DNA of 64,000 nucleotides from assembly GCF_044647545.1 (NCBI RefSeq), contig NZ_CP172818.1; one strand, written 5' to 3'. This document shows, in pieces, positions 20,601 to 35,600 of the stretch (positions are counted from its first letter, which is position 1; each line of letters starts with the position of its first letter). The DNA comes from Escherichia coli (GTDB lineage Bacteria; Pseudomonadota; Gammaproteobacteria; Enterobacterales; Enterobacteriaceae). The position numbers were made by a program.

Positions 20601-23600
20601 TCGCTGAAGGTTGCCGGGAACAGGTTGGCATCGCCCATAAAGCTCGCCATAAAGCGGGAGGCGGGCTGGCGGTAAAGATCCTGCGGTGAGCCGATCTGCA
20701 TGATGTGTCCCTTGTTCATCACCAGCACAGTATCAGAAACCGCAAAGGCTTCGCTCTGATCGTGGGTGACGTACAGCGAGGTGATATCAAACTGCTTTTG
20801 CAACTCGCGGATCTTGTCGCGCATGCTGCGACGCAGGTTGGCGTCGAGGTTACTCAACGGCTCATCAAACAGCAGCACTTTCGGCTTGAGGATCAGCGCG
20901 CGGGCCAGCGCCACGCGCTGCTGCTGCCCGCCGGAGATCTGATCGACAAAGCGGTCTTCGAATCCTTCCAGATCCACCATCGCCAACGCCTCTTTGACGC
21001 GGGCTTTCAGCTCTGCGCGCGGTACGCCGAGCATTTTCAGGCCATAACCGACATTCTCTCCCAGCGACATATGCGGGAACAGGGCATAGGACTGAAACAC
21101 CATACAGATATCGCGCTGCTGAATAGAGCGATGGGTGACGTCTTCGCCATCAATGAAAATTTGCCCTTCGCTCGGTTTTTCCAGCCCGGCAACCAGGCGC
21201 AAAATAGTGGTTTTGCCGCAGCCGGACGGGCCGAGCAGCGTCACCATTTGCCCCTGCGGGATGGTGAGGTTGATATTGTCGATTACCGTATTACTGCCAA
21301 ATCGTTTAGTGACGTTGCGCAGTTCAACGAAATTTTTCTGAGTCATAGTGCGCTCCATTACGCCTGGTTTTTGGCTTTTGAACGGGAGGTACGTGATTCA
21401 CCGATCAGCCAGTCAAAGATGAAAATAATCGCCAGCATCACCACGATCAGAATGGAACCGTAGGCAATCGCTACACCGTATTCGCCATCTTCCACGCGGT
21501 TGAGGATGTAAGCCGTCGCTACGCGGGTATCCGGCGTGACGAGGAACACAATGGCGCTGACGGTGGTAATGGCGCGCACAAAGCTGTAAATCAGCGCCGA
21601 GAGGATCGCCGGGCGCAGCAGCGGCAGCAGGATGTGCGTAATGGTACGCAGGGAACCGGCGCGCAGGCTGAGTGAGGCTTCATCGAGCGATTTATCGATT
21701 TGGTCCGGTAATGAATCCAACTTACTGATAGTGTTTTATGTTCAGATAATGCCCGATGACTTTGTCATGCAGCTCCACCGATTTTGAGAACGACAGTGAC
21801 TTCCGTCCCGGCCTTGCCAGATGCTGCCTCAGATTATGCCGCTCAATTCGCTGCGTATATCGCTTGCTGATAACGTGCAGCTTTTCCTTCAGGCGGGATT
21901 CATAAAGCGGCCATCCGTCCGTCATCAATACCACCACGTCAAAGGCCGATAGCAGGCTCAGAAGACGCTCCAGCGTGAACATTGTGCGTTCACCGAAAAC
22001 GTGCGCCACGACAGTCCTGCGTACCCTGTCATACGCGTAAAACAGCCAGCGCTGGCGTGATTTAGCCCCGACGTAGCTCCACTGTTCGTCCATTTCCGCG
22101 CAGACGATGACGTCCCTGCCCGGCTGTATGCGCGAGGTTACCGACTGCGGCCTGAGTTTTTTAAATGGCGGAAAATCGTGTTGAGGCCAACGCCCATAAA
22201 GCGGGCGGTTGCCCGGCATCCGACGCCATTCATGGCCATATCAATGATTTTCTGGTGTGTACCGGGTTGAGAGGCGGTGTAAGTGAACTGTAGCTGCCAT
22301 GTTTTACGGCAGTGAGAGCAGAGATAGCGCTGATGTCCGGCAGTACTTTTACCGTTACGCACAACGCCGTCAGTAGCGGAACAGGAGGGACAGCTGATGG
22401 AAATGGAAGCCACCGGAGCACCTCAAAAGCACCGTCATCCACTAAATCAGTAAGTTGGAAGCATCACCGAGAACACAAATGGGCTAATTCGGCAGTACTT
22501 TCCTAAAAAGACATGTCTTGCCCAATATACTCAACATGAACTAGATCTGGTTGCTGCTCAGCTAAACAACAGACCGAGAAAGACACTGAAGTTCAAAACA
22601 CCGAAAGAGATAATTGAAAGGGGTGTTGCATTGACAGATTGAATCTACAGCAGCTTTTTTTAATATGTCCCGTTCGTCGGTAACCCGTTTCAGCTCTTTC
22701 TGGAGACGGCGGATCTCGGCCTGAGCATCTGACTGTTCTTTATTAGTGGAAGAATCCGGACCGTACTTCTTTATCCAGGCATAAAGGCTGTGGGTGGTGA
22801 TATCGAGACGTGTTGCAACGCTGGCAACAGAATAACCGAGATCAACAACCTGTTTGACTGCTTCAGTTTTAAACTCTTCGGGATAACGCTTACCGCTCAT
22901 GGGCACCTCTCTTTAAGCCATTTTAAATGACTCGGAGGTGTCTGTTAAACCCGTGGCGATTCAAAATTGCGATATATACATACCCATGACTGCCCAGCGT
23001 ATCGGCTTCACCAGTCAGCCCGTTACGGTACAGTGTGACACAGTGCGCGTACCTGGGATTCAGCTCACAGGAGAGCAGCATCAGCTCCAGATGTGCGACA
23101 AAATGCGGGAAGGCTTCATCCAGTTGTAGAGTCTGCACCTCACTGAATGAGCCGGTGAATCCAGCCCGGTCAGCCAGAAAATGCAGACGATGACCTTCCT
23201 GCACCAGTCGTGCTCCGAAACACGGTGTGATATCTCGTTTAAGCCCCCAAGTTTGAGTAGAGTCTTTATTCATAATTTTATTCCTGTTAAAGAAGACCAT
23301 GTTCGGCGAATGAGAATATTTGCCTGCCGCCGACAATCAGGTGGTCGGGGACATGGTGAACACTTTTTAACATCCTTTACCCATGGTGATCGACTTTTTC
23401 TTCAGGTCGATCACCCCCACTTTCGTGCTGTACCACCACACCTCGTAGCTGCCGTCTTCCTGCATCTCCTTCAGCCCGACCCGTTCTCCCCTGAACGCCT
23501 TGCCTGCGCTCAGACTTACCCCTTTCACGCTCAGCTTTCCGCTGATATCCACTTTCCTGACCATCACCCCTTCATCGTATTCCGGGGGCGTTGTGTTGCC

Positions 23601-32600: not shown

Positions 32601-35600
32601 GCCGCTCGGCCCTAAATAGGTAACGCGCGCGCCCTGGTCAAATGCGGCAACTTCGAAAGAGCAACGGGTACGAGTCGAGTCTTTTTCGAAGATGAGCGCG
32701 ATGTTTTTACCGGTAAGCTTCTGTACTTCCTTGCCATTTTTTTTATCGGCTTTGAGCTGTGCGGCAAGGGTCAGCAGAGAAGTGAACTGTGCAGGGGTAA
32801 AGTCGAGCAGTTTCAGAAAGTGTTTTTTGTATAAATCGGACATTTTATCCTCGCATGGCGAACGCCACTTATTGAATTAAAATTCACTTTATATGTGTAA
32901 TTATTCATTTGCAACCCCATTTCACAATTCTTTCTTACAAAGGTGGAGGCAAACCCGTCCGTGTGTGAAAATAATCGTATCTGCCTCCGATTCTCTGCAG
33001 AAGCAGAAAGACATTGGATCGAATTCTACAACCAGGTCGAGTCAGAAATGAGAATGATTGGCCTTCTTTATGATTTTAAGGATTATGCTTCTAAAATGGC
33101 GGAGAACATGGCGAGGCTTGCTGCCTTACTTCATTACTTCAGCGGTGATGGAGGCGATATATCTGTTACCGGGTAATGACTCCAACTTACTGATAGTGTT
33201 TTATGTTCAGATAATGCCCGATGACTTTGTCATGCAGCTCCACCGATTTTGAGAACGACAGTGACTTCCGTCCCGGCCTTGCCAGATGTTGCCTCAGATT
33301 CAGGTTATGCCGCTCAATTCGCTGCGTATATCGCTTGCTGATTACGTGCAGCTTTCCCTTCAGGCGGGATTCATACAGCGGCCAGCCGTCCGTCATCCAT
33401 ACCACGACCTCAAAGGCCGATAGCAGGCTTAGAAGACGCTCCAGCGTGGCCATTGTGCGTTCACCGAAAACGTGCGCAACGACCGTCCTCCGGAGCCTGT
33501 CATACGCGTAAAACAGCCAGCGCTGGCGCGATTTAGCCCCGACGTATCCCCACTGTTCGTCCATTTCCGCGCAGACGATGACGTCACTGCCCGGCTGTAT
33601 GCGCGAGGTTACCGACTGCGGCCTGAGTTTTTTAAATGGCGGAAAATCGTGTTGAGGCCAACGCCCATAATGCGGGCGGTTGCCCGGCATCCGACGCCAT
33701 TCATGGCCATATCAATGATTTTCTGGTGCGTACCGGGTTGAGAAGCGGTGTAAGTGAACTGCAGTTGCCATGTTTTACGGCAGTGAGAGCAGAGATAGCG
33801 CTGATGTCCGGCGGTGCTTTTACCGTTACGCACCACCCCGTCAGTAGCTGAACAGGAGGGACAGCTGATGGAAATAGAAGCCACTGGAGCACCTCAAAAG
33901 CACCGTCATACACTAAATCAGTAAGTTGGAAGCATCACCGAATTTTCAGCCCGGATGTTTCACGTACCTATGTCGAATATCTGGCCGATAAGGTTGCGGA
34001 TCGAGAAGAGGATGCAGAGGAATATCTGGAAGCAATCATGGAGGCTCGTGTTACCGTTGCTGGCATGGGGCTGGTGATGGAGGTGCAGGATTACTTCGAT
34101 GGCGAGGCCGATAGACTGGCGAAGGCGTGGCTGGCCGAGTACACACCGCAAATCAAGTCGTTGAAAGATGAGCGTAAAGAGGCCTATCGTCAAATCGTCG
34201 AAATGAGTACCGAACCGCAGGATGTGGATCTGGTCAGGCCGGCGAACAAGTTTGAAATGACCAGGGTGCGTGAAGGTGAAAAGGAAGCTGACCTTCCAGT
34301 CTGGAAACACCATTTGTTGTGTGACGAAAGCGGGAACTATCCGGCTCTGTTGAACCATTGGGAAACCAAGGTTTTTGAGATCGAAACCAAACGTGAAGGA
34401 TTTGCTTTCTGGTATCGTAATCCACAGTACACAGGGCAGTCGTCACTGGGAATCGCTTATGTTGAAGCTGAACAGTACAAGATTGTTCGTCCCGATTTCC
34501 TGTTCTTTGCCGAACAGGATGGCAAAATGGTTGTGGACCTGGTAGATCCACATAGCCTACATCTGGCTGATGCTTTGCCCAAACTGGAAGGACTTGCGCT
34601 ATATGCCGAACATCATTCTGATGCTTACAGGCGAATCGAATCTGTCGCCGAAGTAAAGGGTAAATTACGAGTGTTAGATTTGAAACGGCAGGATGTGCAG
34701 GATGCTGTTGCTACCGCTGAAAATGCAGAAACGTTATTTAGTAGCGGACTTGCTGATGACTATCAGTAATCTATAGAAAATTGCGTAACGAAACTGCATT
34801 TTAGTAATTTTTTGAAACAATACAAATAAGGCCTTCTCACTGAGAAGGCCATTACCGACTTACAGTTCGATTTGGCTACAGCCGAAGTTACGGTCTCCTT
34901 CACCAAACACTTTGCTTTCAACTTTGGTCAGGTAGTCCAGTCGGGTTAACAGCGCCTGGTAGTTCTGCTGGAAGTCAGTACTATTGGTGTCTAGCACATA
35001 CTTACAGTTTTCAGGAAAATGGACCAGACCAGGGTGATCGTCTCTCTCCAGTCTCAGGGCGCTGTACCAGGCTCCTGTGATCATCCCTCTAAGGTTATCG
35101 TCCTGATCGTAATCCCCGAGGTGGTAGTAAGCGTCTTTGTTGAACAACAGGCAAATGTGATAGTGGCATTTACCTGATTCAGAATACTCTTTCGCCCATA
35201 TAATAAATAAAGGGCAACGGTAAATGCGTTTATCCTCACGCACCTTACGGGTACGGTCAGCCTCCAGCTTAGCTCTGAGGGATTCACGCATCCGGGATAT
35301 CACCCCAGGTTCCAGGTTAGGGAAGCAACAGATATTGTCACCGTTATCAACTATTTTGGGATAGTGGAGATCGACACGTACAGCAATTAACCTAGGATAC
35401 CGGTTAGTCAAATAACATAATAATTTATTAATCTTACTCTGATATTCGAGGATATGTACTCCATGAGTACCTTGATATGTTTTCATAATATATACCTGTA
35501 TTTGGTCCTACGGTCTATAGCAGACCGTACAGGGATGCCATACAGGCAGGGCTATTCCTGGTCACTGTTGTCGGTATATACTGGTATCAGATTTTAGTAC

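Follow-up and report, generated by a model that had tools for sequence, protein, structure and literature searches.

The stretch of Escherichia coli DNA analysed here, 64,000 nucleotides of contig NZ_CP172818.1 (assembly GCF_044647545.1) and referred to as the window throughout, contains within the prophage CP4-6 two copies of the insertion sequence (IS) IS1 which bracket the genes yagB, yagA, yagEFGHI and argF. The same region is known from E. coli K-12, where its general nature, foreign, rich in guanine and cytosine (GC), flanked by IS1 and located within CP4-6, has already been established and is no discovery of the present work. What can be refined is how the region came together: the gene order of donor-type loci, the junctions at base level, including those at the IS element ISEc19 and at a crossover with the prophage gene yfjI, and the comparison of the docking site suggest, with a little more confidence than doubt, that the interior between the IS1 copies is a stepwise patchwork docked at a resident IS1 and subsequently trimmed by a 427-bp deletion, rather than one block captured whole. 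No new kind of element is involved.

The sequence-only reading had recognized the K-12 argF region, rightly so, as genes, gene order and junctions agree and the interior (22469-33171) is 100% identical to MG1655, from whose RefSeq record the gene annotation was transferred. In window positions, the parts between and directly beside the IS1 copies are:

21358-21706, minus strand: afuB', an ABC permease gene without its 5' part, the outer flank of the left IS1
21707-22468, minus strand: left IS1, at the position of K-12 IS1B, 762 bp, with an in-frame 6-bp deletion in insB
22469-22649, plus strand: 3' end of an IS30, 181 bp, truncated by the left IS1
22652-22900, minus strand: 5' fragment of an IS3-family (IS911-like) transposase gene, from the annotation and an NCBIfam match to IS3 transposases
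22923-23273, minus strand: yagB, CbeA-family antitoxin gene of a CP4-type prophage (annotation; Pfam CbeA_antitoxin)
23287-23341, minus strand: partner toxin gene, a remnant truncated by ISEc19 and annotated as a pseudogene in MG1655
23342-24592, minus strand: ISEc19, IS481 family, with inverted repeats and yagA (23367-24521) as its transposase gene
24599-32985: Enterobacter-type chromosomal segment, 8.39 kb, with hairpins, yagE, yagF, yagG, yagH, xynR, a further hairpin, argF, argL and the argF control region
24599-24677, plus strand: GC-rich double hairpin upstream of yagE, its leftmost arm cut by ISEc19
24816-25724, plus strand: yagE, 2-keto-3-deoxy-xylonate aldolase, GC at third codon positions (GC3) 0.80
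25739-27706, plus strand: yagF, xylonate dehydratase, GC3 0.86
27933-29315, plus strand: yagG, MFS transporter (Pfam), GC3 0.89
29327-30937, plus strand: yagH, GH43 glycosidase (Pfam), GC3 0.88
30942-31700, minus strand: xynR (yagI), IclR-family repressor of the yag operon
31783-31818, plus strand: second GC-rich hairpin, between xynR and argF
31839-32843, minus strand: argF, ornithine carbamoyltransferase
32813-32908, minus strand: argL leader peptide
32966-32985: crossover patch from Enterobacter DNA to yfjI
32986-33171, plus strand: yfjI (DUF3987) fragment, 186 bp, nucleotides 917-1102 of the gene, 100% identical to K-12 yfjI
33172-33939, minus strand: right IS1, at the position of K-12 IS1C, 768 bp
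33940-34769, plus strand: yagJ, 3' remnant of a DEAD/DEAH helicase gene belonging to the island, adjoining the right IS1 on its outer side

The DNA enclosed by the two IS1 copies amounts to 10,703 bp (22469-33171), in agreement with the approximately 10.7 kb first estimated, and both transposases are encoded on the minus strand. While the pair in the same orientation had been correctly seen, the start assigned to the left copy (21698) was 9 bp too early and lies at 21707. Both copies possess complete terminal inverted repeats of 23 nucleotides (GGTAATGA(A/C)TCCAACTTACTGAT at one end and ATCAGTAAGTTGGAAGCATCACC at the other), have the length of an IS1 and encode on the minus strand open reading frames (ORFs) of 91 and of 165 or 167 amino acids, as befits insA and insB, with the A6C frameshift motif TTTAAAAAAC (plus strand: GTTTTTTAAA) retained; the K-12 equivalents of both copies match the Pfam domains Zn_ribbon_InsA and DDE_Tnp_IS1. 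The duplication of 9 bp (8-11 bp) that accompanies a simple IS1 insertion is, as had also been noted, seen at neither copy, the left one being flanked by ATTTGGTCC on the outer and GAGAACACA on the inner side and the right one by CTGTTACCG on the inner and GAATTTTCA on the outer side. Such absence of target duplications shows that rearrangement took place later and leaves the identity of the elements as IS1 unaffected. Each copy parts unrelated sequences, afuB' from the IS30 remnant on the left and the yfjI fragment from the helicase remnant on the right. As removal of the right IS1 gives a single ORF yfjI'-yagJ, the splitting of one gene by this IS1 was considered and discarded as coincidence, the two sides corresponding elsewhere to yfjI and to the helicase gene, respectively.

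Two direct IS1 copies with complete terminal repeats and intact outer ends around a cargo are what would be expected of a classic class I composite transposon, an IS1-segment-IS1 unit captured on another replicon and transposed into CP4-6 with subsequent loss of its outer duplication; in older K-12 literature the IS1-argF-IS1 unit was treated as transposon-like. On the other hand, the outer flanks of the pair, ATTTGGTCC compared with GAATTTTCA, do not match and thus provide no 9-bp duplication at the level of the unit, they are fragments of unrelated genes, and an empty site in which they are contiguous without an IS was not found.

The major part of the interior has its closest relatives outside Escherichia in the Enterobacter hormaechei complex. 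A donor scan with YagF, in which each species was represented by one genome, gave 98% amino acid identity in E. hormaechei subsp. hoffmannii, E. vonholyi and E. quasihormaechei, with more distant homologs in Leclercia (94%), Raoultella (93%) and Phytobacter, Kluyvera and Buttiauxella (86-87%). Gene by gene, identity to Enterobacter is 93.5-96.3% on the nucleotide and 95.7-98.7% on the amino acid level, compared with nucleotide identities of 86-90% for Leclercia and 80-87% for Raoultella, and thus drops with phylogenetic distance. Window positions 24676-32985 form one collinear alignment with the locus of E. vonholyi (94.5% over 8,314 bp), from yagE through the region upstream of argF. The Enterobacter gene order is yagEFGH-xynR-argF-rraB, with the arcA-side region on one flank and rraB directly upstream of argF, and it is this rraB-adjoining Enterobacter gene to which the window argF is 95.4-96.3% identical on the nucleotide level, compared with 83% for a Klebsiella gene and 78-79% for E. 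coli argI, which on the K-12 map is the gene beside rraB.

In E. coli, occurrence of the block is patchy. It was detected in 316 of 5,426 complete genomes and, in a sample spread over the ranking of these hits (not all 316 being enumerated), at full length only in K-12-type genomes; on plasmids it is confined to K-12-derived F' plasmids, and the 20 contexts displayed for exact ArgF and YagE all have the K-12-type inner structure, none with argF next to rraB. Identity graded with distance, native synteny in another genus and patchy distribution in the recipient together give the direction of transfer, from an Enterobacter-like chromosome to E. coli. K-12 argF is then most likely the imported counterpart of argI, arrived with its native neighbours, and not an old duplicate. 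A literature search for a published Enterobacter origin of argF gave nothing specific. The genes yagEF(GH) constitute an XynR-repressed operon for the conversion of xylonate via 2-keto-3-deoxy-xylonate to pyruvate and glycolaldehyde and are termed prophage genes (PMC5934670; PMC13279387); with respect to origin, argF and this prophage operon form an uninterrupted stretch of Enterobacter-type chromosome, which bears out the proposal from the sequence of foreign xylonate genes and a second ornithine carbamoyltransferase of an Enterobacter or Klebsiella type.

In its composition, the block departs from the recipient and resembles the donor. Positions 24599-32985 have a GC content of 61.8%, compared with 47.7% in the core flanks and 41.8% in the yagJ-intF module, and yagE, yagF, yagG, yagH, xynR and argF have a GC of 0.59-0.67 and a GC3 of 0.77-0.89, core genes at the window ends having a GC3 of 0.39-0.63 and the Enterobacter orthologues a GC of 0.59-0.66. 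The visible GC richness of yagE-yagH is thereby put into numbers, and as uniform composition and a lack of closer relatives outside Escherichia are both contradicted, by GC3 and by the Enterobacter matches, the claim of foreign origin stands. The rise in GC is not aligned with the IS1 copies, as mmuP-afuB' outside the left IS1 already reaches 56.8% and the first 873 bp inside only 47.1%; ISEc19 has a GC of 0.611 and a GC3 of 0.756.

An exact 21-mer, GGGAGAGGGCCGGGGTGAGGG, is present at 24653 and 31796, each time adjoining a GC-rich hairpin. Copies of the hairpin occupy the same intergenic positions in Enterobacter and/or Leclercia, the yagE-side copy in E. hormaechei subsp. hoffmannii (locus L004) and Leclercia (locus L007) and the copy between xynR and argF in L004, and have thus arrived with the block. 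The hairpin family is denser in those donor-type loci, with 4 copies each in 13.7 kb and in 22 kb. Of the initial assignment of these repeats to Klebsiella/Enterobacter-type genomes, the two copies and their inheritance from the donor hold, but the motif is not diagnostic of foreign DNA, since the core genome of E. coli itself has an exact copy, located in strain MS6198 downstream of lpcA. An Rfam search of the hairpins gave no credible family, and their folding energies are mildly better than those of shuffled sequences (z-scores -1.4 to -2.5).

At the hairpin between xynR and argF, an insert of 1.2 kb bordered by further 21-mers is found in L004 (10212-11428) and in the E. quasihormaechei locus L006 (6141-7302), and is missing in E. 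vonholyi, Leclercia and E. coli; its ORFs of 195 and 120 amino acids matched no NCBIfam family. Within the block itself, yagE (25237-25259) and argF (32292-32314) have in common a coding-strand string of 23 nucleotides, 22 of which are identical and in the same codon phase (peptides ALTGQDL and ALTGLDL), far longer than expected by chance in 20 kb.

Where the foreign DNA ends is not where the IS1 copies are. Homology to Enterobacter starts at 24599 (L004, L007) and stops at 32985 (L004, L007, the E. vonholyi locus L005 and locus L010) in all loci which reach that far, and the gaps between the IS1 copies and the block are filled by IS30/IS3 debris and a prophage antitoxin gene on the left and by the 186-bp yfjI fragment on the right. 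The captured DNA is not bounded by the IS1 pair. The right end of the segment is located about 25 bp short of the start of rraB; the Enterobacter sequence reads TGAAAATAGAAGTATCTGCC up to this point and GCACTTTAAAG beyond it, leading to the ATG of rraB, K-12 yfjI reads TGAAAATAATCGCATCTGCC followed by TCCGATT, and the window reads TGAAAATAATCGTATCTGCC followed by the same TCCGATT. Over the 20-bp patch 32966-32985, Enterobacter and yfjI are identical in 16 of 20 positions, and the window is a mosaic of both inside the patch, indicative of a crossover between Enterobacter DNA and yfjI, a gene of another cryptic prophage of K-12, CP4-57. While the mosaic itself is read directly, we infer the process: at the right join, the crossover would have taken place where the two partners happened to be similar over a short distance.

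On the left, homology starts within the hairpin, the outer arm of which is replaced by the end of ISEc19. Inspection of the flanks of ISEc19 revealed no target duplication. At its right end, two overlapping versions of the terminal repeat are present (24547-24570 and 24569-24592), of which the outer one matches the left repeat better. ISEc19 at 99% identity or above was found in 317 E. coli records, essentially the K-12-type set, with a median of one and a maximum of two places per genome, and its nearest relatives, 84-88% identical, reside on plasmids of Leclercia, Enterobacter and Escherichia. ISEc19 probably arrived together with the Enterobacter block. A one-ended mobilisation of the block by ISEc19 was considered as well, but by eye neither a duplication around ISEc19 plus block nor a convincing surrogate end at 32985 was detected, and as the right junction is explained by the homology patch with yfjI, this idea was dropped.

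Between the left IS1 and yagB, the junction of IS30 with the IS3-family fragment, in opposite orientations, also occurs on an E. coli plasmid beside sucrose genes. Plasmid H63, a candidate for sharing the junction of IS1 with the IS30 remnant, was ruled out, as it has only the junction of IS30 with the IS3-family fragment in common. The last 181 bp of IS30 are present twice in the window, 22469-22649 being 99.4% identical to 14125-14305 of an intact IS30 which is inserted in an IS911.

How the IS1 copies came to enclose this patchwork can be approached from genomes that lack it. In 40 genomes of varied natural origin, the order is mmuPM-afuC-afuB', a single IS1 and helicase'-yagK, without the argF segment, and K-12 and the window have exactly the afuB'-IS1 junction of these genomes; the same 348-bp afuB' fragment with the same IS1 junction is found, for example, in 0H18 and FACU 2024. 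The left IS1 did therefore not arrive with the cargo. The single-IS1 genomes retain 427 bp of the helicase gene which are missing in K-12 and are thus no deletion derivatives of the K-12 form. In 0H18, the single IS1 diverges by 1.4% from K-12 IS1B and the flanking DNA by about 1.3%, as expected for an old, orthologous insertion.

These genomes weigh against transposition of a composite unit into CP4-6, as its left outer junction exists around a single IS1 without any segment. K-12 IS1B (in afuB) and IS1C (beside yagJ), which are identical to each other also when checked in the K-12 locus, are described as 'type II' copies, a type not shared by the four other described K-12 IS1 copies, which would suit joint arrival of the pair; however, type II copies hardly transpose, with a frequency of about 1 per 10^10 cells (PMC12428005). 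Altogether, we regard the composite transposon as quite improbable. From the capture by an IS1 composite transposon proposed at the outset, the bracketing direct IS1 pair and the foreign DNA remain, whereas IS1 copies as edges of the capture are contradicted by the ends of homology at 24599 and 32985, and transposition as a unit by the 40 single-IS1 genomes.

That the IS1 in afuB' accommodates cargo is illustrated by FACU 2024, where two direct IS1 copies enclose 1,104 bp with a second copy of gadE (positions 14937-17576 of locus L110) and both outer junctions of the single-IS1 form are kept. Apart from argF, there is thus at least one instance in which the resident IS1 accepted IS1-linked cargo and no target duplication was newly formed. 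The gadE segment is present in two copies also in LD39-1 and 2017.10.01CC, the location of the second copy having been examined in FACU 2024 alone.

Alternatively, the patchwork could have been located beside a single afuB' IS1 already in the ancestral island, the right IS1 being a later copy with an adjacent deletion, and the 40 genomes having lost the segment by deletion into the helicase gene. Adjacent deletions are a known property of IS1, no duplication is present at any of the IS1 junctions, and K-12 IS1C is identical to IS1B as would be a recent copy. However, at least three events are required compared with two, the clean two-IS1 insertion of other cargo in FACU 2024 with both single-IS1 junctions kept is left unexplained, and as ISEc19 and the block are missing from all genomes not of K-12 type, including those that share the afuB'-IS1 junction, a single early loss must be assumed. 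We consider such a resident segment unlikely.

The preferred reading of a patchwork docked at a resident IS1 can be formulated in four steps, of which the joining of Enterobacter and prophage DNA and the linkage of the product to an IS1 are read from the sequence, whereas the genomes with a single IS1 or with gadE served for deducing the docking and the 427-bp deletion. An 8.39-kb piece resembling the E. cloacae/hormaechei complex, probably together with ISEc19, joined E. coli prophage-type DNA, the right join presumably by short-homology crossover with yfjI. This patchwork then became linked to an IS1. At the afuB' breakpoint of CP4-6, the IS1-linked patchwork may have been taken into the resident IS1 by homologous recombination between the IS1 of a circle and the resident one, or by an equivalent cointegrate, an event which generates two direct IS1 copies but leaves the target unduplicated. 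Finally, a deletion adjacent to IS1 would have removed 427 bp of the helicase gene.

Several observations weigh against this reading. The right junction in K-12 is not that of a simple docking, so that the additional 427-bp deletion must be assumed, and neither a circular intermediate nor a source locus with the yfjI fragment, IS1 and the IS30 remnant in succession was found. The IS1 copies of the window are about 5% apart, unexpected if they derive from recombination between similar copies, and the docking model needs later gene conversion or an assembly artefact to account for it. The gadE case demonstrates that docking at this IS1 occurs, not that argF docked there. With respect to the block, ISEc19 at this site was not found in any of the Enterobacter loci examined, and the nearest donor sequences are just 94-96% identical, so that the actual donor lineage is unsampled among the genomes searched.

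More tentatively, and with doubt prevailing over confidence, the afuB' IS1 of CP4-6-type islands might represent a recurrent landing pad for IS1-linked circles taken up independently, with xylonate genes and argF in K-12 and gadE in FACU 2024, the K-12 cargo having been pre-assembled in a CP4-57-like island via the crossover in yfjI. In that case, what textbooks present as an 'IS1 composite transposon' with argF would never have been a transposon. AH04 displays the canonical order of the island, int, a helix-turn-helix gene, yfjI, yagK and an intact helicase gene (857 amino acids), of which yagJ is the 3' remnant.

The direct IS1 repeats, as has in part been shown, now act mainly as portable homology for deletion, amplification and rearrangement of the 11.5-kb unit, and not in transposition. 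In two genomes with exact K-12 ArgF (LR883000.1 and CP119187.1), the outer flank of the right IS1 is altered. The flanks present there instead of yagJ, an MBOAT/ykgEFG region in one and an hsdR/AbiE region in the other, indicate IS1-mediated rearrangements at the right copy. Many draft assemblies end exactly at both IS1 copies and thereby yield contigs of about 10.7 kb.

The two IS1 copies of the window differ from each other by 34 substitutions and the 6-bp in-frame deletion in the left copy. The left copy has 60-61 differences from K-12 IS1B and 4 from a rare natural variant of 762 bp (NT1F25); the right copy has 30 differences from K-12 IS1C, and a comparison with about 74,600 matched places from the 5,426 complete genomes gave a nearest natural relative of 97.8% identity. 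In the right copy, sites with alleles of one IS1 type alternate finely with sites of another type, as at the adjacent positions 704/705, and the InsB of this copy has no record in a gene-position index, weak evidence as it depends on gene calls. None of the complete E. coli genomes exceeds 99.3% identity to window 21000-34600.

The IS1 sequences of the window reflect either IS1 replacement in the strain or a polishing artefact. That they arose in assembly or polishing, with a repeat consensus mixing the IS1 variants of the genome and the real copies being ordinary, has in our estimation an even chance: the unique DNA of the island shows 0 differences from K-12, against 61 and 30 in the two IS1 copies, and the fine interleaving of two allele types in the right copy, its best natural match of only 97.8% and, as a weak indication, the missing InsB record fit such an origin. 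Conversely, the left copy is a nearly pure natural variant, and the window carries non-K-12 sequence at 57776-60240 and is hence no reference-guided consensus.

The surrounding island is of the CP4 type, with a P4-like integrase, repeats of the tRNA end and the backbone genes, and is inserted at thrW. Its delimiting features are:

5439-5508 and 39741-39810: 70-bp direct repeats of the thrW 3' end, which constitute both ends of CP4-6
38234-39634: intF, tyrosine integrase

intF is located at the end of CP4-6 far from the intact thrW tRNA gene, and thrW holds many different islands and prophages among genomes sharing the same ProA allele. Compared with MG1655, the window has 308 differences in 48.7 kb, which fall into four clusters, proBA, the two IS1 copies and yagU-ecp; from thrW to paoA, nothing but the IS1 copies sets the island apart from K-12. 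The core flanks (1-5500 and 45368-64000) match strain MS6198 with 0 mismatches and window 5493-45380, thrW through CP4-6 to pao, is 100% K-12; MS6198 has no island and no pao operon, with an integrase remnant at thrW, and the switch points of ancestry are located within about 10 bp of the indel borders of MS6198. At 57776-60240 the IS3 near eaeH/ykgA of K-12 is missing and about 2.5 kb, partly matching fdeC, are found instead, and at 56346 the window is short of 6.3 kb present in MS6198 (oxidoreductase, hydrolase, LysR and aldo/keto reductase genes). The possibility that the window as a whole is a consensus of MS6198-like reads on MG1655, suggested by K-12 identity that stops precisely where the segment missing in MS6198 does and by differences confined to the IS1 copies, was ruled out by the K-12-absent sequence at 57776-60240 and by these structural differences from MS6198.

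Docking at a pre-existing IS1 accounts better for the IS1 pair around argF than a transposon does, which is of relevance where the region serves as an example of capture by a composite transposon. Also for engineering of the yag operon or argF in K-12 derivatives, the direct IS1 repeats are to be considered, as they render the unit prone to deletion and rearrangement.

Among known systems, the K-12 argF region (IS1B-yagB-yagA-yagEFGHI-argF-IS1C in CP4-6) is the same locus as that in the window, with two distinctions: the IS1 copies of the window are non-identical and its core flanks match MS6198 instead of K-12. For 'Tn2901', a name of the argF element, a literature search gave no match. With class I composites such as Tn9 (IS1-cat-IS1), the window has in common two direct IS1 copies with intact ends around non-IS cargo; unlike those, its unit lacks an outer 9-bp duplication, the outer flanks are nowhere contiguous, one of the IS1 positions exists alone in 40 genomes and the cargo is itself a patchwork with three other IS remnants. 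A mechanistic analogy is provided by the translocatable units of IS26, in which circles of one IS plus cargo insert beside or into a resident IS copy. As in those, two direct IS copies surround the cargo, no new duplication is generated and the resident outer junction is kept, cleanly so for gadE in FACU 2024; in contrast, IS1 belongs to a different family, homologous recombination would be the likelier route and the K-12 product requires the extra 427-bp deletion. The native loci of Enterobacter and Leclercia correspond in gene order, orientation, hairpin positions and high GC to the yagE-argF segment of the window, with 93.5-96.3% nucleotide identity in Enterobacter; in Enterobacter, the locus is not accompanied by IS1, ISEc19 or prophage genes, is flanked by arcA-side genes and rraB and, in L004 and L006, holds the additional 1.2 kb.

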